Shown here: positions 4,563 to 33,063 of the stretch, one piece after another | Position numbering within the stretch: the first letter of the stretch is position 1 | Layout: every line of letters starts with the position of its first letter | Assembly (NCBI GenBank): GCA_016432625.1 | Contig: CP066697.1 | Location: 81,415 to 145,414 of the forward strand | From: Candidatus Berkelbacteria bacterium | GTDB lineage: Bacteria > Patescibacteriota > UBA1384 > 2-12-FULL-50-11 | Length of the DNA stretch: 64,000 nucleotides | Direction: 5' to 3' | Notes under the pieces: generated by a model | What the model was told of the DNA's origin: nothing | The model's database searches: none | What the model saw: only the letters and a program-made list of their open reading frames with translations | Program-made: the position numbers and the translations under genes

Positions 4563-4817
4563 GCGATCCCGGCTCTTGAGCCAAGCATTTTTCGCCCACT
4601 GCAGGGTTAGCGTTGAGATCAGAAACCCTATCGAAGGAATAATCGCATTGCCCCACGGCCTATTTATCCCCATCAGTTGCATATAAGCGCCAATTAATAA
4701 GTACGTTGTAATAAGCAGGATAATTTTACGAATCAGGCTAGTCTCCCACTCTTTATCGGAGGCCACTTTTGCGTTGCGAGCTTCGATCGCAGACACGCGT
4801 TTTTCGAGATCTTTCAT
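4560..4817 (-). CDS. small membrane protein with an N-terminal coiled-coil, hypothetical
   Basis: 85-aa ORF directly downstream of tRNA-Asn on the minus strand. Confidence 0.4.
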   Translation of the reverse strand: MKDLEKRVSAIEARNAKVASDKEWETSLIRKIILLITTYLLIGAYMQLMGINRPWGNAIIPSIGFLISTLTLQWAKNAWLKSRDR

Positions 4818-4820
4818 CTG

Positions 4821-4892
4821 CTCCGGAGGTCGGATTCGAACCGACGACCAATGCGTTAACAGCGCACTGCTCTACCGCTGAGCTACTCCGGA
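4821..4892 (-). tRNA. tRNA-Asn (anticodon GUU)
   Basis: minus strand TCCGGAG-TA-GCTCAGCGGTAGAGC-A-GTGCG-CTGTTAA-CGCAT-...GGTTCGAATCC...CTCCGGA-G; cloverleaf with anticodon loop CUGUUAA. Confidence 0.85.
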
Positions 4893-5211
4893 ATACGTTC
4901 GTACTTTTTAGCGAAAGACGGCTCAAAATCCCCAGCGAGGATTTTGTCCTTCCGCTCGGACTCGCTCTGCCGCTACGCGGCAACCATGCCCGCTCGTCCT
5001 GCGCGAGACTTTCTTATAAAAAGTACTCACTCAAACAATAAGGTACTGGCATATTTTACCGCAGCGGCACTCTCGAAACAATCAGGACAGCCGCCTTTAC
5101 GAAACGTCTACGTCCAGGTTAAATGTTTAGTAGGAGGGGAAATTCAACAGATTATTCGTATCACTCATATCTGTCACATCGTTACTAATATAGTTCGGGG
5201 TGAGGTATAAG

Positions 5212-5775
5212 ATGCAACAGATCAAAGTAGGAGTTTCTGGTTCAGCGGTCATTTCGGGCAAGGAAGCAGCGCGCAAAGCTGAACTTATCGGTTACTACCT
5301 GGCACGCGCTGGGGCGATTGTTGTAACCGGAGACACGACCGGCATACCCAACGAAGCGGCCCGCGGCGCCAAACGCGCACGCGGTTTTACCTTAGGCATC
5401 TCGCCGGCCTCTAGCTTTCACGACCACGTTCGGCGCTATAAACTACCGTACAAATACACTGATTTTGCGATATACACTGGGTTTGGATACTCCGGACGCA
5501 ATCTATTATTCATTCGCGCAACTGATGCGGTGATTTTCATCCATGGCCGTATTGGAACCTTGAACGAGTTCACGATTGCCTTTGAAGATAAAAAGCCGAT
5601 CGGCATCCTGACAGACTCCGGCGGCATCTCTGATGAATTGGACCATTTGCTGACCGTGGCTCATCGTGGCCGCAACCTGATTGTGTTCGACGAGGATCCG
5701 AAACGCTTAGTCCAGAAAGTTCTCAAGATGGCCCACGAAGACCTGCGACGAGTTGCCCGCGGTGCTGATGGTTAA
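5212..5775 (+). CDS. LOG/TIGR00725-family Rossmann-fold nucleotide-binding protein
   Basis: GGTSGIMEA-like GVSGSAV...TGDTTGIPNEAARGA...IFIHGRIGTLNEF motifs; start moved to the ATG at 5212, which has a GGTGAGG Shine-Dalgarno. Confidence 0.6.
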   Translation: MQQIKVGVSGSAVISGKEAARKAELIGYYLARAGAIVVTGDTTGIPNEAARGAKRARGFTLGISPASSFHDHVRRYKLPYKYTDFAIYTGFGYSGRNLLFIRATDAVIFIHGRIGTLNEFTIAFEDKKPIGILTDSGGISDELDHLLTVAHRGRNLIVFDEDPKRLVQKVLKMAHEDLRRVARGADG

Positions 5776-7126
5776 ACTTGGTTTCTACGGCGCGGCCGGT
5801 GAGGTAACTGGTTCGAATTTTCTTATTGACACCGGTGAGCATAAATACATTGTCGACTGCGGCCTGTTTCAGGGAGCGGACGAGATTACCGAGCACAACG
5901 ACGAGCCGTTTGCCTATAATCCCTCCGAAGTTGAAGCGGTCGTGGTGACACACGCTCACCTCGATCACATCGGTCGCCTACCGATGCTGGTGCGAGGCGG
6001 TTATAAAGGCCCCATTTTTACTACTGAAGCAACTATCGAACTAGCTGGTTTGGTTCTGCAGGACGCGCTTGATTTGGCGACGCATCGCCACGAGCGAACT
6101 GGTAAGCCGCTATTGTTTGAACGAGTTGATTTACAGCGCACACTGGAGATGTTTCAGGCGGTACCATATCACCAACGGCACGCACTGCTCGGTAGCGACG
6201 GGTTCACGCTTTACGACGCCGGCCATATTTTGGGGTCGGCTGCAATTAGCGTTGAAGCAGGCGGTAAACGCATTGTGTTTTCCGGTGACGTCGGTCACGC
6301 CCCGAACGTTCTGCTGCCTCAGCCGGAAACTGGCTTCGCGGCCGACGTTGTCGTCACCGAAGGCACATATGGTGGCCGAGAGCGAGAAGACAAACTGGAT
6401 CGCTTGGCGGTCATCAGGGAAGCGGTGGATTGGGTTACCGAGCGCAAAGGCGTACTGCTCGTACCGGCGTTTTCCGTAGAGCGTAGCCAAGAGCTCCTCT
6501 ACCTCTTAAACACCTTGTTTAACAAACACCAATTGCCGAAAATCCCGATATTTCTTGATAGCCCGCTCGCCATCGAGGCGCTTCAAGTTTTTGAACGCCA
6601 CCAAGAGCTTTACCGCAAGGACGTCCAACAAGTCCGTCGAGTTGACGACGATATTTTCTCGTTTAAGGGTCTGGCGCTGGCGACGTCCGTCGATGAGTCA
6701 AAAGCCATTAATGAGCAGGCGCCGCCAAAAATAATTATCGCTGGCTCGGGCATGATGGAAGGCGGCCGCATTCATCACCATCTGAAACGCTATCTTGGTT
6801 GGCCCAATACCTACCTGCTGGTTGTCGGCTTCCAGGCTCCAGGCACGCTTGGCGACCATATCCTAAGCGGCGCGTCTACCGTCAACATTCTCGGCGAGCG
6901 AATACCGATTAGAGCTAAGGTAGTGCGCGCGGATGTCTTTTCTGGCCACGCGGATAACTCGGAGCTGTTAGACTGGCTCCACGGTCTCCGTTATGCCGAT
7001 AACGCCAAGGTCTTCGTGGTGCATGCTGATGCCGATAAAACCGCACTTTTCGAAGAAAATATAAAGCGCGCCATACCGCACGTCAGTGTTGTTGCACCCG
7101 AACTCGGCCAAGTTACAGAACTGTAG
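5768..7126 (+). CDS. MBL-fold beta-CASP ribonuclease (RNase J/CPSF-like RNA-metabolising metallo-beta-lactamase)
   Basis: MVKLGFYGAAGEVTGSNFLIDTG ... THAHLDHIGRLP (the HxHxDH motif) ... C-terminal beta-CASP His motifs; the ATG at 5768 overlaps the upstream stop by 8 nt. Confidence 0.7.
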   Translation: MVKLGFYGAAGEVTGSNFLIDTGEHKYIVDCGLFQGADEITEHNDEPFAYNPSEVEAVVVTHAHLDHIGRLPMLVRGGYKGPIFTTEATIELAGLVLQDALDLATHRHERTGKPLLFERVDLQRTLEMFQAVPYHQRHALLGSDGFTLYDAGHILGSAAISVEAGGKRIVFSGDVGHAPNVLLPQPETGFAADVVVTEGTYGGREREDKLDRLAVIREAVDWVTERKGVLLVPAFSVERSQELLYLLNTLFNKHQLPKIPIFLDSPLAIEALQVFERHQELYRKDVQQVRRVDDDIFSFKGLALATSVDESKAINEQAPPKIIIAGSGMMEGGRIHHHLKRYLGWPNTYLLVVGFQAPGTLGDHILSGASTVNILGERIPIRAKVVRADVFSGHADNSELLDWLHGLRYADNAKVFVVHADADKTALFEENIKRAIPHVSVVAPELGQVTEL

Positions 7127-15394: not shown

Positions 15395-15649
15395 GCGTAA
15401 AAGTTCTCGCGTAATTGTATCAAGGTTAGACGTATATATGAAGGAGAAGGGGATGGTGGGGGATGAAGGCGCGGGGGCAGGAAAGTGTGTTTCTAAGACA
15501 GGAAGTCTCGCAGCTAGCGCTGCTCGGAAAGCTCCTTCGTCCAGGAAGGAACCCGCCTCACTTCGTTCGGCAATTCTCGCATACTAAAAGTATGCTCGAA
15601 TCCGAACCACGCCAGCTGAAGCTGGCTGTTCGCCTCCTTCACGCCAGCA

Positions 15650-15688
15650 AAACAAAACACTAGCCATTGAGGCTAGTGTTTTGTTCTA
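15650..15688. terminator. rho-independent terminator (12-bp stem, bidirectional) after the second tRNA-Met
   Basis: AAAACACTAGCC-ATTGA-GGCTAGTGTTTT flanked by an A-run and a T-run. Confidence 0.6.
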
Positions 15689-15689
15689 G

Positions 15690-15760
15690 TAGCGGGGACA
15701 GGATTCGAACCTGTACCTGTTGGTTATGAGCCAACCGGGGTGCCATTCCCCTACCCCGCT
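15690..15760 (-). tRNA. tRNA-Met (anticodon CAU), A1:U72 variant; initiator candidate
   Basis: AGCGGGG-TA-GGGG-AATGGCA-CCCC-G-GTTGG-CUCAUAA-CCAAC-AGGT-ACAGG-TTCGAAT-CCTGT-CCCCGCT-A; the weak 1:72 pair is reminiscent of initiator tRNAs. Confidence 0.7.
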
Positions 15761-15874
15761 AATATCGGATTATATCTAAAAATCAAGGTTGAATCTAGTC
15801 GGAGGTGAGCTGACTTTTCTGGAATATCTAATGCATCTCGGGCTACCCACTTGATACGGATCTACCTGGATATT

Positions 15875-15995
15875 TGATTTCTACCGGTATAATCTGCCGT
15901 TTCAGATTTACCTCAGCACTTCGTGCCAATCGGTATAATCTGCCGGTTGCAGATTTACCTCGATATTTCATATCTTTCGGTATAAAATATGGAAC
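15875..15995 (+). promoter_or_regulatory. three tandem -10-bearing repeats of about 47 bp upstream of ftsH (TATAAT at 15888 and 15934, TATAAA at 15981); the last lies 9 nt before the ATG
   Basis: CGGTATAATCTGCCG(T/G)TTCAGATTTACCTC repeated, with a third truncated copy. Confidence 0.4.
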
Positions 15996-17813
15996 ATGCC
16001 GCAGCGTAACCGCGTCACGCGTCAGATCGTCTCTATTGTCACAGTATTATTTCTAGCCCTAATCGGCTGGGTAATTTTGCTTGGGCCAAATTCCAAAAAA
16101 ACCGAAGACGTCGGCATCTCCCAAATTGCCCAGGAGGTTCAAGAGGGAAAGGTCGAGCTTATCCGCGTTGAAGGTAATAAAGTGATTGCTATCACCAAGG
16201 ACCAGCGTGAGCTAGTAGCTTTCAAAGAGGCGAGCCAGGGCCTTAAAGACTACGGCATCACTGGCGACAAAGTTAAGCTCCAGATCGATAATCCTGATTC
16301 TGGTGCCCTTTGGACGACGTTGCTTTCGGTGATGCTGCCATTTGCCCTATTGATACTGATTCTGTGGCTCATGAGTCGGCAGGCACGAGCTGGCAACATG
16401 CAAGCGCTTTCCTTTGGACGCTCAACTGCCAAAATCGCCGATCCACGAAAACGAACAACCTTTAAAGATGTTGCGGGGCTAAAAGGCGCCAAACAAGAAT
16501 TAGTCGAAATCGTCGACTTTTTGAAGAGCCCGGGTAAGTTCAAAGCGCTTGGCGCGGAAATCCCCCGAGGTGTTTTGCTGTACGGTCCGGCAGGCGTTGG
16601 TAAAACCTTGCTCGCCAAGGCCGTGGCTGGTGAAGCCGAGGTTCCCTTCTTCACCTTGTCTGCTTCAGAATTCGTAGAGATGTTCGTCGGCGTCGGCGCC
16701 TCAAGAGTCCGCGATCTTTTCGCTAAGGCTAAACGCGTCGGGCCGGCAGTAATCTTCATAGATGAGCTAGATGCTGTTGGCCGTCAGCGCGGCACTGGCT
16801 TGGGTGGCTCGCATGACGAACGCGAGCAGACTTTGAACCAAATTCTTGTCGAGATGGACGGGTTCGACACTGATACTAATGTCATCATACTCGCCGCGAC
16901 TAACCGGCCAGACGTGCTCGACCCGGCCCTGCTACGCCCCGGTCGATTCGATCGTAAAGTTGCCCTTGATATTCCTGACCGACAAGAGCGCAAAGAAATT
17001 ATTGAAGTTCATGCTCGAAATAAGCCGATTGCTAAAGGCGTTGATTTTAATGAAGTCGCCAAAACCACACCAGGACTAGCCGGTGCGGATCTGCGCAACA
17101 TCGTTAACGAAGCAGCAATTTTGGCCGCCCGGGAAAATCGCAAGCAAATTGAGCAGAAAGATTTTCGTAACGCCATCGAAAAAGTCATGCTCGGCCCGGA
17201 ACGTACCAGCCATATTATGCTTGGTAAAGAACGAGAAATTGTTGCCTACCACGAGTCGGGGCACGCGATCATCGGTCATATTCTTTCCGAATTGGATGAT
17301 GTTCATAAAGTCTCAATCGTCTCGCGTGGCATGGCCTTAGGGTTCACCTTGTCGCTACCAAGTGAAGATCGCCGCTTAGTGCCAAAAACCAAATTTGAGC
17401 AACAGATCGTTCAGCTTCTAGGCGGTCGCGCGGCGGAGCAATTGATATTCAACGAAGTTACGACCGGTGCCTCAAATGATCTAGAGCAGGCAACTTCAAT
17501 CGCCCGCAATATGGTGACAATCTTTGGCATGAGCGAACTTGGGCCAATTAAACTTGGCGAACGCGAAGAGATGGTGTTCCTCGGCCGGGAAATGGGCATG
17601 CATAAAGTTCACTCGGAGAAAGTCGCCTCAGAAATTGATGAGCAAATTCACACCATTATTAACCGTGCCTGGAAGCAGGCTCTGGAAATTCTCAAGAAGG
17701 AGATGAAAACGCTCCATGAGATGTCGAAATTACTACTCGACAAAGAAACGCTTGAAGACGACGATCTGCGTACCATACTCGGGACACTGAAAACCGCTCC
17801 GGTGAGCAACTAG
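15996..17813 (+). CDS. ftsH: ATP-dependent zinc metalloprotease FtsH
   Basis: AAA+ Walker A (GPAGVGKT), SRH region, HESGHAI zinc motif, two N-terminal TM segments. Confidence 0.9.
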
Positions 17814-24156: not shown

Positions 24157-25862
24157 TGGCGATTCGCAATTTCGCAATCATCGCTCATATCGATCACGGC
24201 AAATCGACACTTGCCGATCGTCTGCTGGAAAAAACCGGAACGGTCAAAGTTGGTAGCGGAGATCAGCTGCTCGATACGATGGAATTAGAGCGGGAAAAAG
24301 GCATTACGATTAAGCTGAACCCGGCTCGGATGTTTTACGAGCATGACGGCGAGAAGTACCAGTTAAACCTAATCGATACCCCGGGGCACGTAGATTTCGG
24401 CTATGAAGTTTCCCGTTCTCTGGCTGCGGTCGAAGGCGTCCTCTTGTTGGTCGATGCCAGCCAAGGCATCCAGGCCCAGACCCTAACCAACCTTCATCTA
24501 GCCGAAGATAGTCACTTAGTTATTATTCCAGTGGTTAATAAAATAGATCTGCCGCACGCTCAAAGCGAAGAAACTGCCGAGCAACTTGTGAAGGCGTTGA
24601 AGTGCGCGGAAGACGATATCTGTTTCGTTTCAGGCAAAACAGGTGAGGGCGTGGAAGAGTTACTGGAGGCGATCGCCAAAAGAATTCCGCCACCTAGACC
24701 AAATCCAGACGAACCGCTTCAAGCTCTAGTTTTTGATTCCTTTTTCGACGTTTTTCTTGGTGTGGTAGCGTACGTGAAAGTTGTCAGCGGCAATTTAAAG
24801 AAGAATCAGCCGCTATTAATGAAGGCGACTGGCGCCGCCTTTGATTGCTTACAGTCTGGCTACTTACAAATAAAAAGAATCGACAACGGTCATTTAGATA
24901 GCGGCGAGATCGGTTATGTCGCTACGGGCTTAAAGACGGTTCATGACTGCCGGGTTGGAGACACGATTGTTGCCTCTGGTACGACGAGCGCCCTGCCGGG
25001 CTACAAGACGTCAAAACCAATGATTTATGCTTCGTTTTTCCCAGAGCCTGGCAAAGAGCGGGAACTAACGGTGGCGCTAGATAAACTTAAGCTTTCCGAT
25101 GCGTCGCTTTCCTACGAGCCAGTTAGCTCAAAAGCCTTGGGTCCGGGCTACAGCATCGGGTTCTTGGGGTTGCTTCACTTGGAAATAATAAAAGAAAGAC
25201 TAAACAGAGAGTTTGACATCGATATCCTCGTTACGACACCCTCAGTAGCCTACAAACAGGAAGAAGGGCAATGGATGGAGCCGTGGGTGGAGCTTGAAGT
25301 TGTTTGTCCCCGGGAGCATTACGGTGCCGTAAGCGACCTTGTCGCCCAAAGCCGAGCCGTATTCGTCGACGTTGAATACGTTGCCGACAGAGTCGTCTGT
25401 CGTTACGAGACGCCGCTCTCAGAGGTGATCAGCGATTTCTACGACAAACTTAAATCGGTCACTTCTGGCTACGCCTCGATGGATTACCAGCTAAAAGACT
25501 ATCGCGCGGCGGATCTCGTCGCTGTTGATTTACTTGTTGCGGGTGACAAGATCGATGCCTTAACTCAGTACATGGTTCGTTCCAAGGCCGAATCCTATGG
25601 TCGAAATCTTGTCCAAAAACTGAAAGAGCTAATTCCCCGCCAGAATTTTGAGGTCACTTTGCAGGCAGCAATTGGCGGCAAAATAATTGCCCGCAGCGAT
25701 ATATCGGCCGTTCGCAAAGACGTGACTGCCAAACTCTACGGCGGCGACGTGACACGTAAAAACAAGCTATTAGACAAGCAAAAGAAAGGTAAGAAACGAC
25801 TGCGGACTCTGGGACGGGTCGAAGTGCCGAGCGAAGTTTTCGTTGAATTGTTGCGTAAGTAA
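24156..25862 (+). CDS. lepA: translation elongation factor 4 (LepA)
   Basis: MAIRNFAIIAHIDHGKSTLADRLL (G1), DTPGHVDF, NKID G-domain motifs. Confidence 0.9.
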   Translation: MAIRNFAIIAHIDHGKSTLADRLLEKTGTVKVGSGDQLLDTMELEREKGITIKLNPARMFYEHDGEKYQLNLIDTPGHVDFGYEVSRSLAAVEGVLLLVDASQGIQAQTLTNLHLAEDSHLVIIPVVNKIDLPHAQSEETAEQLVKALKCAEDDICFVSGKTGEGVEELLEAIAKRIPPPRPNPDEPLQALVFDSFFDVFLGVVAYVKVVSGNLKKNQPLLMKATGAAFDCLQSGYLQIKRIDNGHLDSGEIGYVATGLKTVHDCRVGDTIVASGTTSALPGYKTSKPMIYASFFPEPGKERELTVALDKLKLSDASLSYEPVSSKALGPGYSIGFLGLLHLEIIKERLNREFDIDILVTTPSVAYKQEEGQWMEPWVELEVVCPREHYGAVSDLVAQSRAVFVDVEYVADRVVCRYETPLSEVISDFYDKLKSVTSGYASMDYQLKDYRAADLVAVDLLVAGDKIDALTQYMVRSKAESYGRNLVQKLKELIPRQNFEVTLQAAIGGKIIARSDISAVRKDVTAKLYGGDVTRKNKLLDKQKKGKKRLRTLGRVEVPSEVFVELLRK

Positions 25863-25867
25863 ACAGT

Positions 25868-25892
25868 GGCCCGTCCCTTGCGGGGACGGGCC
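25868..25892. terminator. GC-rich hairpin between the convergent lepA and glpX
   Basis: GGCCCGTCCC-TTGC-GGGGACGGGCC; weak U-tracts. Confidence 0.45.
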
Positions 25893-25902
25893 AAGTCGGA
25901 CT

Positions 25903-26931
25903 CTAAAGGCGAAATGCCTTCTTCGGGTGATCGATTGTTACGATCCTGGAGGGTGGGATCAGGTAGCGAATGCCGTCTTCGCAACCCATCGCCGACCAGT
26001 GAATGACGTGTCCGTGGCTAAAGCGTTTGACCGCTTCTCCGCGTAATACGCCGTGTGTGACGTGGGCGATGGCGACTACAATCCGTTGGCTAGGCGCGAG
26101 TTCGTTCGTCGTGTAGTAACGGTTAAACTCGATACCCATTTCAAGCATTCGGTCGCAGTAGTTGTCGGAGAGCTTGCCTCGATCCTTGGGGAATTCGGCC
26201 AACTCGTCAGGATGAAGGTAGCGTCCCCAATGAGAGCCGCCCATACACTTGGCGACGCAGGCGCCGATATGCCCTTCGGGAGATCCGCCGCTGCCCATGA
26301 CCGCATCAGTGTCGTGACCGGCCACCATTGCGTTGATGACCTCGGACAGGTCACCGTCGGTGATCAGCGTCACTCGTGCCCTGGTCTTCCGAATCTGGTC
26401 GATGGTGGATTGGTTGCGCATGCGATCGAGGACGGCGACAGTAATGCCGCGAGTTTCTCGGTCGAGACGTTGGGCCATCGCTTCGATGTTCTCGGCGATT
26501 GTTGCAGTCGGATTGACGACATCAACAAGATCAGGCCCAACGGCAAGCTTGTCCATGTAGCCATCGGCTGCCCCGATGATGCCATCCGCATCGCCACAAG
26601 CCAAAATACAGATTGCCCCTCGTTGGCCTTTGGCACATGGCCCAGTACCCTCAAGTGGGTCGATGGCGATGCTGACCTTGGGGCCAGAACCGGTACCGAC
26701 CTTTTGGCCAATGTAGAGCATTGGCGCGTTGTCGCGCTCACCCTCTCCGATGACGATTTGGCCGTCCATCTCAATCCCATCCATCACCGCGTTGATTGCC
26801 TCAACGGCGAGGTGGTCTGAGTTCTCTTTGTCGCCGTCACCGATACTGTCGGCGGTGGCCAGTGCTCCAGCGTTGACGGCACCGATGAGTTGTGGCCAAA
26901 GGCTGATGATTGGATCTTTACTATTAAACAA
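25903..26931 (-). CDS. glpX: class II fructose-1,6-bisphosphatase (GlpX family)
   Basis: GlpX-type motifs [34 protein letters not shown]; GC about 55%. Confidence 0.8.
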
Positions 26932-27017: not shown

Positions 27018-28670
27018 TTATTCGCTAGATAGCGCTTGTTGGCCTAGTTTTTCAAGTTTGTACTGCGCCGCACGCTCCGCGGCCAAGCGGGTCAGCTCCG
27101 GATCTTCGCGACTATTAATAAATTTCATCGCCTTGGCGATCCGCGGATAAACTTTGGCGAATTGCTCGTACATTTTTAAGCAAATACGGCGATAGCCGGG
27201 GTGACCGTCGGGACCGGTGCGGAGTTCTAAGAAGTGAAATAGCGCCCGAGCGTTGAAGATATAGCGATAGCGCATTTTATGTCCAAGTAGGGTTGCGTAC
27301 TGCGCCTCGGCTTCAAAACCAGATGACCTTAAACGCTGATAGAGCTCGTAAGACAGCTCGAAACATTTTGTAAACTCTTCTTCGTAGCCGCCTTCTTTCA
27401 CGAGCGCGGGAATATGATAACCGTAGTCAGGCGTGAGGCGCTGCCACTCCTCGCCGTCGACAACGCGGTGGCGCTGCAGATCGCGAAAAGTCCCGTAGTC
27501 ATTTAAGATCTCCCATTCAAAATGAGCTTTCTCAAACGCCCGGCCTGGCTTATGTCGGCGGTTCAAGCGCTCGCCACAATACAACTTAAATAGCTGGTCA
27601 ACTTTTTTCTGCGGCCATTTTTGCACTTGGCGTCGGATCTCTTTTTGCGGTAAGTCTGAGTACGCGAAAAGCATTTCTGCTAGTAGTTCCTCCTCATTTT
27701 TTGGCCAGTGATCAAGGAGCATCACGTCGCCATCGCTGGTGCGGAGCTTGTCGTTGCTTGTGAGGTTGCGCTCGGCGAATTGCCTTAAATTAGTACGAGT
27801 GTTGGAGAGGAAGGCGGTGATCGCCCCACCACGTTCCGGCACATCGGCCCGTTTCAAAAATGGCCGTATTACTTTACGACACTCGGCCAGGGTTTTAGTA
27901 CCGACTGTGCGGAACTCCTCTAAATCTTCGCTCAACAGGCGCATCACGAGGTACTCAATCGCTTGGGCGCTGGCAAAAATCCCCACGGTTGATTTTGTAG
28001 CTGCCGGCAATACTGTCCGGATAGCGTCACAGGCCGTAGCGCGGGTAGAGTTTAGCCAGGCGGTACGTTCTTTGCGATCCGCCGGCTCGGGATTCTTGAC
28101 GCGTAAATGAGCCGCTAGTCCTCGGACCATCGATGAATAAAGATTGAAGATCTCATCCATCGTCTGGTTATAATCCTGAGCAATTTCGCTTGGCAGATTG
28201 GTCGGCGTGAAATACAGGTAGCGGCCATTGATGTCACGTGAGTCAAAGAAAATGTAGCGCGTTGATTGTTCGAGTGGCGAAGTAAATCGACCCCATTCCA
28301 AGGCTTTGGTCAGTAAGTTCGAAGCGCCCTCAACCACGAAGTACGCGCCCGCAAGCTGCTGAACGGAGTCATCACCGTAAGCGGTAATAACGCGATCAAA
28401 CAGTGCCTCCGCGTCTTCCTCGCCGGTTTGTGAAAATTCCTCAATCAGCGTCATCCGCAGGTCGCCTGCTCTTCGGCTAAGCCTGGCCATAGCGGCGCCA
28501 ATGATCGCTGGCGAGAGTTTGTCGGTGAACGAATAGACTTGGTCTCGCGTGTTAGTGACGATGGCGTCTAAGTAGGCGTAACCCTCGTCGCTAATTACTG
28601 GAACAAATTTTACGAACGGATTTTCTGTTTCGGAGGATTTGGCCATCAGCCTTGTGGTAACAGGCGACAA
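27018..28670 (-). CDS. ThyX-family (flavin-dependent thymidylate synthase-like) protein made of two fused ThyX-like domains
   Basis: N-domain has the ThyX motif as WGRFTSPLEQSTRY (the RHR is WGR) and ...SAQAIEYLVMRL; C-domain has HKPG..FEKAHFEWEI, LQRHRVVDGEEW (RHR kept, the Ser is Asp) and NARALFHFLELR...YRRI; both halves align to T. maritima ThyX. Confidence 0.6.
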   Translation of the reverse strand: MSPVTTRLMAKSSETENPFVKFVPVISDEGYAYLDAIVTNTRDQVYSFTDKLSPAIIGAAMARLSRRAGDLRMTLIEEFSQTGEEDAEALFDRVITAYGDDSVQQLAGAYFVVEGASNLLTKALEWGRFTSPLEQSTRYIFFDSRDINGRYLYFTPTNLPSEIAQDYNQTMDEIFNLYSSMVRGLAAHLRVKNPEPADRKERTAWLNSTRATACDAIRTVLPAATKSTVGIFASAQAIEYLVMRLLSEDLEEFRTVGTKTLAECRKVIRPFLKRADVPERGGAITAFLSNTRTNLRQFAERNLTSNDKLRTSDGDVMLLDHWPKNEEELLAEMLFAYSDLPQKEIRRQVQKWPQKKVDQLFKLYCGERLNRRHKPGRAFEKAHFEWEILNDYGTFRDLQRHRVVDGEEWQRLTPDYGYHIPALVKEGGYEEEFTKCFELSYELYQRLRSSGFEAEAQYATLLGHKMRYRYIFNARALFHFLELRTGPDGHPGYRRICLKMYEQFAKVYPRIAKAMKFINSREDPELTRLAAERAAQYKLEKLGQQALSSE

Positions 28671-28679
28671 TAGTATATG

Positions 28680-29408
28680 TCAAGCAAAGTGATACTTCTT
28701 GGATACAATACGCCAAACTTTATCGCTAATTTCCTCACGGCTCAGTTGCTCACCGTTCTTAGAACAATCTACAATTGGCCAATTGAAACGCCTAGCTAAC
28801 TTCGGGTAATAACTATTAACGCTCTCCATGTAAGCTAAGTCTTGCTCGTGTCGGTCGCGTTCGGCGACCTGAGCATGCGTCTTGCCTCCACTTTTGGCCA
28901 TGAATTCTCGTCTTCGTTTTTCGGTTTGTTCAGCGCGCACCGCTGCCGGTAGTGTCAAGATCAAAACCAAATCTGGCTTAGGCAGCTCGAAATACTCGTG
29001 CTGCAAATAGGTTAGAACTTTAATGAAGTGCTCCTGTTCCTTCTTGTTTTTAAACTTGACCGTTTGATGCGCCAAATTGGATTCGACGTAACGATCACAA
29101 ACCACCCAATTGCCTTTCTTTAATTCAGGGATCATTGAGTTGACGGCAACAACACGGCGGTCGAGCTCATAGAGCATACTTGCCTGCAGCGGATCGCCGG
29201 CGATGACTTCATCCAGCGCTTCGCCTCTCCCCAAATAACGGCTTACTAGACCGCCCCAAAAGCTATCGTAATCGGGGAAGGTGTAGAAAATTGCCTTGGC
29301 GGGCGAAATCCGTCCCGACTTATTCAGTCTTTCAACGAAGAGTTGAGTTTGCGTCCGTTTGCCAACCCCATCATTGCCGCCGAAAACGATCACTTTACCT
29401 TTAGCCAT
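28680..29408 (-). CDS. tmk: thymidylate (dTMP) kinase
   Basis: IVFGGNDGVGKRTQ P-loop; DRYVESNLAHQ is the Tmk DRY...AYQ motif. Confidence 0.75.
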   Translation of the reverse strand: MAKGKVIVFGGNDGVGKRTQTQLFVERLNKSGRISPAKAIFYTFPDYDSFWGGLVSRYLGRGEALDEVIAGDPLQASMLYELDRRVVAVNSMIPELKKGNWVVCDRYVESNLAHQTVKFKNKKEQEHFIKVLTYLQHEYFELPKPDLVLILTLPAAVRAEQTEKRRREFMAKSGGKTHAQVAERDRHEQDLAYMESVNSYYPKLARRFNWPIVDCSKNGEQLSREEISDKVWRIVSKKYHFA

Positions 29409-29477: not shown

Positions 29478-30152
29478 TCATCTGCTTCGGCTGCGCCGTC
29501 TTTGCGACAGTTTCTCCTTGACGAAGCTTTCGATCATCCGTTTCAGGCGAGCGGAGCGACGGGGCGGTTTCGGGTCTTTGGCCGGTTTCATCCATTTGAT
29601 ACTCCGGCCGATCGGCTCGATGGCCGGATCAGGGTACGGTACGCCATGCGAATCACAAAGGCTGCGGTAACCGGCTTCGTTGACCACGGCGCTGTGGCGA
29701 TCGTCGCCGTCCCTTTTCCAACGAGGGGCAAGCGAGTTGATCATGCCCATCAGTTCCGATAGTTCTTCAGGACTGCCGTAAAAGGCACTGAGCTGGATCG
29801 TTACCCGGTGGGCAAAGTAGGACTGGTCGCGAGCGATTTGATGGACCTCGGGACCAGTTATTTGCTCGGCCAGTTCCGGGTTGATTGCCAGTTCTTCTAG
29901 ATCGAAGGCCGCCTCGCCCCCGAGGTCTGGAAGTCGGGCACTCTCGACGTAGAGACCCTGAATTTCTAGTATTCGTTTCAGGATTGTTGCCTTCTCATCG
30001 GCGCAGTCTTTGGATTTCTCGTTGACGAGGGAGTGACGTCGCAATAGGTAACGTAACTCCCGCATTTCCCTTCTCGTCCTTGCTGGCCTGTCCCGGCCGG
30101 GCATTACGCGAAGGAAAAGTTGACCTCGTTCACTATTACGATCATTACTCAC
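29478..30152 (-). CDS. hypothetical Arg-rich protein (GC about 58%)
   Basis: 224-aa ORF in the operon orientation of thyX-like and tmk; no motif recognised and the frame choice is uncertain. Confidence 0.3.
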   Translation of the reverse strand: MSNDRNSERGQLFLRVMPGRDRPARTRREMRELRYLLRRHSLVNEKSKDCADEKATILKRILEIQGLYVESARLPDLGGEAAFDLEELAINPELAEQITGPEVHQIARDQSYFAHRVTIQLSAFYGSPEELSELMGMINSLAPRWKRDGDDRHSAVVNEAGYRSLCDSHGVPYPDPAIEPIGRSIKWMKPAKDPKPPRRSARLKRMIESFVKEKLSQRRRSRSR

Positions 30153-30784: not shown

Positions 30785-31045
30785 TTAAAGAAGTTGAGCG
30801 AGTGCGATTAAGGCGATTAGCGCCCAGATGATATTTAGGGCCGCCGGCTGGTAGTCCTTTTTGGCTACAGAATGGAAGATTATCCCAATAGCCCCAATAA
30901 AGTTGAGGATCTGATAGGTGCTTGTTTGGCTAGCGAAAACATCGAAGCTCACCATCGCATATGCCAGGATAATTAAGGCAACGCTGAGCCAGCCGATAAT
31001 CTCTATTATTAGATGGGTTTTTTGACGTGACGAAGACAGCTTCAT
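30785..31045 (-). CDS. small three-TM membrane protein (PQ-loop/SemiSWEET-like?)
   Basis: start placed at the ATG at 31045, which overlaps the HD-gene stop (ATGA coupling). Confidence 0.4.
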   Translation of the reverse strand: MKLSSSRQKTHLIIEIIGWLSVALIILAYAMVSFDVFASQTSTYQILNFIGAIGIIFHSVAKKDYQPAALNIIWALIALIALAQLL

Positions 31046-31635
31046 CGTTTCCAGTCCCCAGAGTTGTGGCGGTTTCGCGCTTGGAAATGCCAAGCGTGCG
31101 GATCGGCGTTCTCGATCTCGTCCCAAAGAGTCTTAGCGGTTTTAGTATAGAGTTTGTGTCCTTTAACTTGTTGTCGTCGTCGCGCACCCCACAACTTTTT
31201 TAGAGGGCTACCGTGGACTTGTTGCTCCCGGAGTTCGAGTTCAACGTCCAAGGTGTCAGCGTCTTTGACAATTTTCGCTTCGATGCAATCGAACCGTTCG
31301 TATTCTTCCCAGATATCGACGAACTCTTTAAGCGAAGTAGAGGCCAGCATATCGTTAATAGCCAATTGCTCGTTTCGCGTTGTGTAGAGCCGAGAAACGT
31401 AATGTACGTCCCCCGTGCGAGACTCGGGGAGATCGTGCACTAGAGCCATTTTCAAGAGCTTCTCGCCGTTTACTTCTTTTTCCTTGGACGCAATGAGCAG
31501 AGCAACCCACATCAGACGGAAAGTGTGTTCGCTGACGTTGGCAAAATCGGCTCCTAAAAACTGACGCCATGTCCGTTGCACATGACGCAGAGTCCCTACT
31601 TCGAAGAGAAAGTTAATATCACTAACCTTTGGCAT
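31042..31635 (-). CDS. HD-domain phosphohydrolase (YfbR-like 5'-deoxynucleotidase family)
   Basis: EHTFRLMWVA...LVHDLPESRTGDV...DADTLD are the HD motifs. Confidence 0.7.
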   Translation of the reverse strand: MPKVSDINFLFEVGTLRHVQRTWRQFLGADFANVSEHTFRLMWVALLIASKEKEVNGEKLLKMALVHDLPESRTGDVHYVSRLYTTRNEQLAINDMLASTSLKEFVDIWEEYERFDCIEAKIVKDADTLDVELELREQQVHGSPLKKLWGARRRQQVKGHKLYTKTAKTLWDEIENADPHAWHFQARNRHNSGDWKR

Positions 31636-32233: not shown

Positions 32234-32551
32234 TTACATTCCCGCCTGCCAACCGTACTTCTTTAAGTCTACCCAAAACTGGCCGTTTTGTTCGGACACG
32301 GTAACGCCATCTTCTTGTAATAACCCGGCCTGCATGGCTGGCGGGTGCTCTAGGCAAGTTGTGGAAATCATGCCTTTAGAATTGATTACCCTTTGCCACG
32401 GCAAGTTATAGACTTCCGTTTGATGATGAAGGATCTGCCCCACAACAATTGCTGCTCGGGGTGTGCCGGCAAGCGCCGCGACCTGCCCGTACGTAGCAAC
32501 TTTGCCCCGTGGAATCGATTTGATTATTTTCACTACCTTAGAGGCGAACAT
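32234..32551 (-). CDS. alkyltransferase-like (ATL) protein; MGMT-family DNA-binding domain with Trp in place of the active-site Cys
   Basis: IPRGKVATYGQVAALAGTPRAAIVVGQIL...PWQRVIN, against the canonical PCHRV. Confidence 0.7.
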   Translation of the reverse strand: MFASKVVKIIKSIPRGKVATYGQVAALAGTPRAAIVVGQILHHQTEVYNLPWQRVINSKGMISTTCLEHPPAMQAGLLQEDGVTVSEQNGQFWVDLKKYGWQAGM

Positions 32552-33063
32552 TAAATCTGATTGAGTTCAAGAATCGTAACCGCGTCACCAACGTTGAAGT
32601 ACTGGCTTTGCCCAGCGTTAAGCTCGAGAACGTAATCTACCGGCGCCGGTGGGCGATAATTTGGCAAATCTTGAGGCTGGGCACCAATTTTTGGCGGCGG
32701 CGCGTTCTTTTCAACGCCAATGACCTTGCCGTTGGCAATCCAGACAATATCAAGCGCAAACCGCATGTCTTTCATCCAGAAAGGTACGGTTTGAGGCGGC
32801 GAAAAGGGGAAGATCATTGCGTCGGTCTCTGGCATTGAGTCGCGACCGGATAATCCCAGAGCTTGTTCCTCAGTAGTTTTAGCAACCTCGGCGTTATAGT
32901 TACGATTATTAATCGTCACCAAACTCACCTTCTTTTGAACTTGCCGCGCATCGTTCTCATAAGCGCGAAAACTTGCCGGACCACTGAATGCCCGGTAGAG
33001 GAACGCGAAAATCAGGCCAAAAGCCAGTAGCGTCACAACGCTAATGAGGATTTTTTTGTTCAT
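32551..33063 (-). CDS. DUF192 domain protein (secreted)
   Basis: signal peptide; GLSGRDSMPETDAMIFPF...FWMKDMRFALDIVWI is the DUF192 pattern. Confidence 0.65.
   Translation of the reverse strand: MNKKILISVVTLLAFGLIFAFLYRAFSGPASFRAYENDARQVQKKVSLVTINNRNYNAEVAKTTEEQALGLSGRDSMPETDAMIFPFSPPQTVPFWMKDMRFALDIVWIANGKVIGVEKNAPPPKIGAQPQDLPNYRPPAPVDYVLELNAGQSQYFNVGDAVTILELNQI

Follow-up and report, generated by a model that had tools for sequence, protein, structure and literature searches.

Complementary loss of active-site motifs between the halves of a double-domain ThyX from a Candidatus Berkelbacteria genome suggests composite catalytic sites

The canonical flavin-dependent thymidylate synthases (FDTS, or ThyX; EC 2.1.1.148), represented by Thermotoga maritima TM0449, Mycobacterium tuberculosis ThyX and PBCV-1 A674R, are homotetramers of chains of about 220-250 amino acids (aa), each chain bearing all the motifs, and have four identical active sites, each placed at the junction of three subunits (PMC11940539; PMC4913046). 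In the first site of the M. tuberculosis enzyme, subunit A gives the RHR motif and Arg199, subunit C gives Ser105, Arg107 and Tyr108, and subunit B gives Ser71 and Arg190 (PMC6514825); in T. maritima (Tm) numbering, used here for all reference positions after the sequence had been checked against PDB entry 1kq4, these residues correspond to R174, to S88, R90 and Y91, and to T55 and R165, respectively. In PBCV-1 ThyX, one monomer supplies Gln75 and Arg182, and a different one supplies Ser88 and Gln89 (PMC3498832). Both Ser88 and Tyr91 are critical for the activity of the T. maritima enzyme (PMC11940539), in which R174 activates deoxyuridine monophosphate (dUMP) (PMC8316439). Here we analyse a gene carried by a stretch of 64,000 nucleotides (nt) from a Candidatus Berkelbacteria bacterium (contig CP066697.1, positions 81,415 to 145,414; the whole stretch is referred to as the window), whose product has the same motifs split over two diverged ThyX domains fused in one chain. 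We consider, with a probability of roughly 0.8, that this gene codes for a working double-domain FDTS with composite active sites formed in a dimer, and that its product, thymidine monophosphate (dTMP), would be passed to the co-transcribed thymidylate kinase.

The protein CT632 of Chlamydia trachomatis (about 529 aa) is presumably of the same double-domain type, and was reportedly shown by Griffin et al. in 2005 to be an active FDTS. In the Chlamydiaceae, thyX is present and thyA is absent in the species examined (PMC3932018), and the activity of C. trachomatis ThyX has been assayed (PMC3498832). Chloroflexi have also been described that possess only a duplicated ThyX and no ThyA, the duplication being noted in 2009 as uncharacterised (PMC3224940). 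This remark was all that the literature searched contained on tandem or fused ThyX, and no explicit account of a division of labour between the halves was found in it. The window protein resembles the double-domain ThyX of Chlamydiota, Chloroflexota, Actinomycetota and Patescibacteria in its architecture, its length class (about 520-560 aa) and its invariant motifs. With the canonical enzymes it shares the fold, in both halves, as well as equivalents of RHR, of the S-x-R-Y loop and of Arg147, Arg165 and Arg174, all of which are found in the tandem chain; the reaction and the flavin adenine dinucleotide (FAD) and folate cofactors are probably shared as well. The gene and its main divisions are as follows.

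27018..28670, minus strand: tandem (two-domain) thyX; open reading frame (ORF) from TTG 28670, 550 aa, with Pfam Thy1 matches and a structure model
27765..28613, minus strand: N-terminal ThyX-like domain, aa ~20-302 (Pfam match aa 59-267, 27870-28496); proposed 'substrate-loop' role
27144..27719, minus strand: C-terminal ThyX domain (Pfam match aa 318-509); proposed 'flavin/RHR plus Arg174' role
27726..27854, minus strand: inter-domain linker, aa 273-315, with the motif R274-A-D276-x-P278-x-R280-G-G and a long helix at aa 278-302

Against the Pfam family Thy1 (PF02511), the whole protein scored 120.6 bits (cut-off 24.8) over two stretches. When the halves were scanned alone, the N half matched at aa 59-267 (profile positions 14-188 of 191, 53.2 bits, E 4e-14) and the C half at aa 318-509 (profile positions 2-190, 71.6 bits, E 1e-19). 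Because each half separately matches nearly the full profile, the chain contains two complete ThyX-like domains and not one domain with an insertion. This is what the original prediction, made from the 550-aa ORF, had claimed; neither a single ThyX domain with an unrelated insertion nor a pair of halves lacking all binding residues emerged from the profile alignments.

An AlphaFold2 (AF2) prediction based on 47 homologues gave one compact model, with a predicted local distance difference test (pLDDT) value of 87.4 and a predicted template modelling (pTM) score of 0.83. The top 50 Foldseek matches to this model were all solved single-chain ThyX structures (probability 1.00), each spanning one domain, with template modelling (TM) scores of about 0.65-0.72 when normalised by the target and about 0.3 when normalised by the query; the predicted structure is that of a ThyX fold. 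Profiles were constructed from 24 diverse N halves and 24 diverse C halves and aligned to solved ThyX chains, the former matching M. tuberculosis ThyX (3gwc) with E 4e-11 and the latter T. maritima ThyX (1kq4) with E 1e-6. Aligned to each other with hhalign, the two profiles showed a weak similarity that was nevertheless in register (E 9e-4, 127 columns, about 15% identity); this register was recovered only with diverse-member profiles, the comparison of closely related halves reaching a probability of just 2%, with no similarity of any meaning. Over the first ~60 residues of each half, no hidden Markov model alignment to T. maritima ThyX was obtained, and the A-R-x-S resemblance of N-domain R63/S65 to Tm R28/S30 is a by-eye reading only.

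Conservation was assessed in an alignment of 63 diverse family members sharing 30-53% identity with the window protein, to which all residue counts below refer. The motifs concerned are located as follows.

28365..28376, minus strand: N-domain GDDS, G99-D100-D101-S102, at Tm G52-H53-E54-T55 (YGDDSV aligned over VGHFSV); 63/63
28254..28295, minus strand: N-domain degenerate RHR and loop, W126-G127-R128...E134-Q-S136-T-R138-Y139; loop intact (Tm E86, S88, R90, Y91)
28005..28028, minus strand: N-domain Arg147 helix, D215..R218..L221-P222, equivalent of Tm EVARIVLP; all four residues 63/63
27531..27560, minus strand: C-domain R371-R-H373-K-P-G-R377-A-F-E380, counterpart of Tm ...H51-G-H53-E-T-P-F-E58, with E380 at E58
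27441..27485, minus strand: C-domain R396-D397-L-Q-R400-H401-R402-V-V-D405...Q410; RHR intact, Ser83 replaced by Asp, then the S-G-R-Y loop deleted
27189..27254, minus strand: C-domain N473-A-R475...E482-L-R484...G489-H490..Y493-R494; equivalents of Tm N163, R165, L173, R174

The N domain has kept the loop and lost the RHR. Its segment WGRFTSPLEQSTRY (aa 126-139) falls in register with Tm R78-H79-R80...S88-G89-R90-Y91, so placing W126-G127-R128 at the RHR and S131 at S83; upstream, K122 stands for R74. Arg147, which binds the phosphate of dUMP in T. maritima ThyX, is represented by R218, while R165 and R174 are replaced by Q236 and L245. In the GDDS motif, Tm His53 has become Asp, and the Ser/Thr contacting the FAD phosphate, a role described for Ser71 of M. 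tuberculosis ThyX (PMC6514825), is retained as S102. No variation was observed at G99, D100, D101, S102, R128, E134, S136, R138, D215 and R218 (63/63), and Y139 is present in 61/63. The lost positions behave differently: the site of Tm R78 is occupied by W, D or R (20, 20 and 19 members, respectively), and that of Tm R174 by L or M, never by R.

The C domain presents the opposite pattern. Profile alignment puts the RHR of LQRHRVVDGEEW (aa 398-409) in register with Tm R78-H79-R80, and NARALFHFLELR (aa 473-484) in register with Tm N163-A-R165...L173-R174. R74-Q75 correspond to R396-D397, S83 to D405 and R147 to Q457; the R147 site is mostly Q across the family, and the Ser83 position is T, D or S. 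Five residues, Tm L87-Y91, are missing, the Tm stretch 'lsgry' appearing as an insertion relative to the C profile, and in the alignment of the two halves a gap of 10 columns in C lies directly opposite the N-domain LEQSTRYIFF. R371, R377, E380, D397, R400, R402, R475, R484, H490 and Y493 are invariant (63/63), and H401 is found in 61/63. RRHKPGRAFE aligns securely only from A378/E380 (Tm P56/E58), with H373, conserved in 49/63, two positions off Tm His53. Most of what had been read from the letters was thus borne out by the alignments, i.e. WGR for RHR with the downstream Ser and S.RY kept in the N domain, and RHR and NAR..ELR kept with Asp for the conserved Ser in the C domain; the reading of the His-containing N-terminal motif of the C domain as kept is uncertain, the correspondence of its His being in doubt.

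The RHRxxS motif is complete in neither domain: the C domain has RHR with Asp405, and the N domain has W-G-R-F-T-S, with the Ser kept and the first Arg and the His lost. The S88/R90/Y91 loop exists only in N and the Arg174 equivalent (R484) only in C, each once per chain and invariant. Since the retained residues are invariant or nearly so in the 63 homologues, while their counterparts are absent or variable, this reciprocal loss reflects selection and not chance, and the complementary loss in a 'fused pseudo-heterodimer' that had been suggested is well supported at the level of sequence. The linker motif R-A-D-x-P-x-R-G-G, without counterpart in single-domain ThyX, is likewise conserved in the tandem family (R274 in 60/63). 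All motifs of the double-domain subfamily, namely GDDS and E-x-S-x-R-Y in the N half, and NRRHKPGR, RDLQRHR and NxR...ELR...GH..YR without a loop in the C half, are present in the window protein.

A scenario accounting for this pattern would start with an ancient duplication and fusion of ThyX, followed by a division of labour in which the N domain would have retained only the loop set, together with the Arg147 equivalent and the Ser beside the former His53, and the C domain only the RHR/Arg174/Arg165 set. Under the 222 symmetry of the canonical tetramer, two sites are shared reciprocally between subunits A and C. The C domain of the tandem protein would fit the 'A' role alone and its N domain the 'C' role alone, and therefore each N/C pair would hold one complete and one incomplete site. 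The third-subunit role might be taken by a C domain, with the invariant R475, or by an N domain, with the invariant S102 and Q or R at position 236. A dimer of chains would then constitute a pseudo-tetramer in which two sites are catalytic and each chain binds about one FAD. This assembly would convert dUMP, methylenetetrahydrofolate and NAD(P)H to dTMP and hand this product to thymidylate kinase. Two composite active sites are thus probably formed instead of four; the dimer, its site count and its catalysis are what we infer from the residue map. Compared with the four sites of canonical ThyX, no more than two complete sites per four domains are expected in the tandem form, in which His53 and Gln75 are also changed to Asp. 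An analogous course, in another enzyme of nucleotide metabolism with an unrelated fold and reaction, is that of the monomeric herpesvirus dUTPase, in which duplication and fusion of an enzyme with interface sites were followed by complementary motif loss, leaving fewer composite sites.

Several observations weigh against this reading. His53 is not clearly retained in either domain, being Asp in N and an off-register His in C, and Tm Gln75 is Asp in the C domain. The tandem protein scores 60.9 bits against the thyX equivalog TIGR02170, below its cut-off of 87.9; that model was evidently built on single-domain enzymes. No solved two-domain ThyX was found in the PDB by Foldseek or by the profile comparisons with solved chains. 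Finally, the GDDS of the N domain and R371, R377 and R475 of the C domain belong to the supposedly 'dead' half-sites and are also invariant, which the simple model does not explain; because of this invariance, the 'dead' sites may not be inert, or the third-subunit assignment may be wrong.

That last point leads to a further reading, in which the incomplete half-sites would have been repurposed to bind a second ligand, such as NAD(P)H, a folate or a regulatory nucleotide like dTMP or thymidine triphosphate. In its favour, the N-domain GDDS, the C-domain R371/H373/R377 and the linker R-A-D-x-P-x-R-G-G are as conserved as the catalytic residues; we regard it as possible but doubtful. If true, such second-ligand sites would mean that this ThyX keeps catalysis apart from reduction or regulation, each with sites of its own, an arrangement impossible for a homotetrameric ThyX.

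The composite-site reading, with ordinary synthesis of dTMP, draws further support from the gene that precedes thyX.

28680..29408, minus strand: tmk, thymidylate kinase of 242 aa, 9 nt upstream of thyX (Pfam PF02223, E 3e-20)

Its product exceeds the Pfam cut-off (73.1 bits against 27) and remains below those of TIGR00041 (65.5 against 83.25) and NF005923 (75.3 against 193), and is a divergent Tmk typical of the lineage. We found tmk directly upstream of the tandem thyX in 23/80 related loci, all of Patescibacteria type, and fused to the N terminus of the tandem ThyX in 25/120 of the closest homologues, with fusions recurring among the representative sequences of the family; adjacency and fusion were seen only in Patescibacteria-type loci. 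The Tmk-ThyX-ThyX fusions (about 730-800 aa) combine, in identical order, the three modules that the window encodes in two ORFs, tmk and thyX, with 9 nt between them. An adjacent tmk in 23/80 loci and a fused one in about one fifth of close homologues favour ordinary dTMP synthesis. The functional link to tmk that the original prediction had drawn is hence sustained, with the correction that thyX is not followed by the kinase gene: tmk is transcribed before it.

The window protein is far from isolated, contrary to the rarity that had been implied. The tandem ThyX family gave 7972 matches among the scored candidates. Of the representative clusters, 3279 matched at E<=1e-3 and 523 of them at E<=1e-30, with lengths almost always of 520-560 aa or 730-800 aa, and the window protein aligns over its full length to the 523 clusters at E<=1e-30. 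Members occur in at least 594 species genomes, from Saccharibacteria and other Patescibacteria, Acidimicrobiia and other Actinomycetota, Chloroflexota, Acidobacteriota, Rokubacteria and Binatia, as well as in Woesebacteria and in an archaeon of the Micrarchaeia (DPANN). The cultured Acidimicrobium ferrooxidans carries one. Within the double-domain family, the Patescibacteria group is distinguished by one extra residue after RHR and by Asp at the Ser83 position. The window protein is an ordinary member of this very large and already annotated double-length ThyX family; an NCBI protein (P0001) derived from a metagenome-assembled genome and named 'FAD-dependent thymidylate synthase [Candidatus Berkelbacteria bacterium]' is 100% identical to it.

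The nearest relatives of one member (P0269) are from Chlamydiia and Chlamydiales, including Estrella lausannensis and Parachlamydia. Two further products of its contig (L083), a GreA of 716 aa with a long extension at the N terminus (4677-6827) and a topoisomerase I that has a SWIB domain at its C terminus (15483-17557), are what we take to be chlamydial hallmarks. Judging from these sequences, the double-domain family is the ThyX of Chlamydiota. On that contig thyX is flanked by genes for a Ham1/ITPase and a NYN/YacP nuclease and by uvrB, not by tmk. Tandem ThyX was also observed in phages: the 'thymidylate synthase' of Microcystis phage LMM01 (491 aa) and the viral protein A0A6B7EUB9 (461 aa) were BFVD matches to the AF2 model over about 506-510 aligned columns (TM 0.58-0.64, query-normalised), and phrog_36506 (thymidylate synthase, 491 positions) matches the N half.

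This distribution bears on a further alternative, raised at the outset as possibly altered chemistry, in which remodelled sites would give another product or act on another substrate, e.g. uridine monophosphate (UMP), deoxycytidine monophosphate or a hydroxymethylation. The three substitutions His53->Asp, Gln75->Asp and Ser83->Asp are at positions lining the canonical site, the protein falls below the thyX equivalog cut-off, and a ThyX homologue with a changed substrate exists, PolB being reported as a UMP C5-methylase (PMC5003785). However, the residues of dUMP activation and methylene transfer (R174, S88, R90, Y91 and R78), and indeed each class of canonical-site residue, are present once per domain pair, with these catalytic ones invariant, and Tmk, which acts on dTMP, is adjacent or fused. 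Moreover, the tandem form is the only ThyX type seen in the chlamydial relatives, several Chloroflexi are reported to have it as their one thymidylate synthase, and organisms with no other thymidylate synthase must make dTMP with it. A change of chemistry is for this reason improbable.

Slighter still is the chance that the N domain serves as a scaffold of no relevance to catalysis, as a pseudo-enzyme domain would, beside C domains that form the active sites alone. The absence of R78, H79 and R174 from the N domain and the higher Thy1 score of the C half would agree with such a role, but the deletion in the C domain removes precisely the S88/R90/Y91 loop reported as critical for activity, and the N domain retains exactly that loop, invariant throughout the family, which is unexpected for an inert scaffold. 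An assembly or gene-calling artefact, in which a frameshift or a chimeric contig would have joined two neighbouring thyX genes, had nothing in its favour and is refuted by the uninterrupted two-domain ORF in thousands of independent assemblies, by the identical protein on three contigs and by the single compact AF2 model (pTM 0.83).

As regards the limits of the gene and its surroundings, the start of thyX is more likely ATG 28646 than TTG 28670, because AAGG lies 4 nt upstream of the former and the resulting 542-aa product is the same as in the NCBI annotation. In the direction of transcription on the minus strand, the order is HD gene, small membrane gene, 125-aa ORF, 224-aa ORF, tmk, thyX and glpX, with these coordinates for the neighbours.

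31042-31635, minus strand: HD gene (PF13023 HD_3, 88.1 bits; PF12917, 32.6 bits; both above cut-off)
30608-30231, minus strand: 125-aa ORF, preceding the 224-aa ORF
29478-30152, minus strand: 224-aa Arg-rich ORF (GC 0.56, Arg 13.3%), between the 125-aa gene and tmk
26931-25903, minus strand: glpX, downstream of thyX
25867..25893, minus strand: terminator-like hairpin after glpX (11 pairs, 9 of them G-C)

Terminator-like hairpins are consensus matches only, and their number in the region is not above the shuffled expectation. The one at 25867..25893 is the probable 3' end of a unit ending in tmk-thyX-glpX. It sits in the 40-nt gap between the convergent lepA (plus strand, ending at 25862) and glpX (minus strand, ending at 25903), and could serve as a terminator for both. 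Another hairpin, at 30690-30673, separates the HD gene from the tmk-thyX unit. With unverified Escherichia coli ThyA and FolA sequences and the verified T. maritima ThyX as queries, no ThyA, DHFR or second ThyX was detected in the window, a result limited to these 64 kb of the genome.

The HD protein reaches only 23.8 bits against the 5'-deoxynucleotidase equivalog NF003009 (cut-off 122) and, by its profile matches, is a generic HD_3/YfbR-like phosphohydrolase; no homologue was found near thyX in the 80 related loci. The 224-aa ORF, for which an independent assembly also has a gene call, matches nothing in Pfam, NCBIfam or PHROG and lacks a counterpart in the same 80 loci; in the closest syntenic one (L001), tmk directly follows the 125-aa gene. 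This ORF looks like an orphan or insertion specific to the lineage and not a part of the module. Both of the neighbours that had been invoked for a wider pyrimidine deoxynucleotide module do exist nearby, yet neither is a conserved neighbour, and this module was rejected for want of homologues of either in the 80 loci, the hairpin further setting the HD gene apart.

At 31042-31126, the HD gene ends inside the ORF of the next small gene, which matches Pfam CBU_0592 and encodes 113 aa by its longest ORF, or 86 aa with a 4-nt overlap in locus L081; this arrangement suggests translational coupling of the two. At 32234-33063, also on the minus strand, the Pfam labels of L081 indicate a protein of 105 aa whose sole domain is the MGMT-type DNA_binding_1 (PF01035), together with a DUF192 protein; a ZIP transporter comes next.

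For the organism itself, the locus supplies the thymidylate synthase that one would expect in a Patescibacteria genome, and it already bears that annotation. At the level of the family, the residue map predicts that a dimer would have two composite sites, to each of which the N domain would bring the loop and the C domain RHR and Arg174, in an enzyme that serves whole phyla, Chlamydiota included, and yet has no solved structure. ThyX is pursued as an antibacterial target because it is absent from humans, and an altered geometry or stoichiometry of its sites could matter for the design of anti-chlamydial inhibitors. The tandem ThyX would also constitute a clean example of subfunctionalisation following the fusion of subunits that share active sites.

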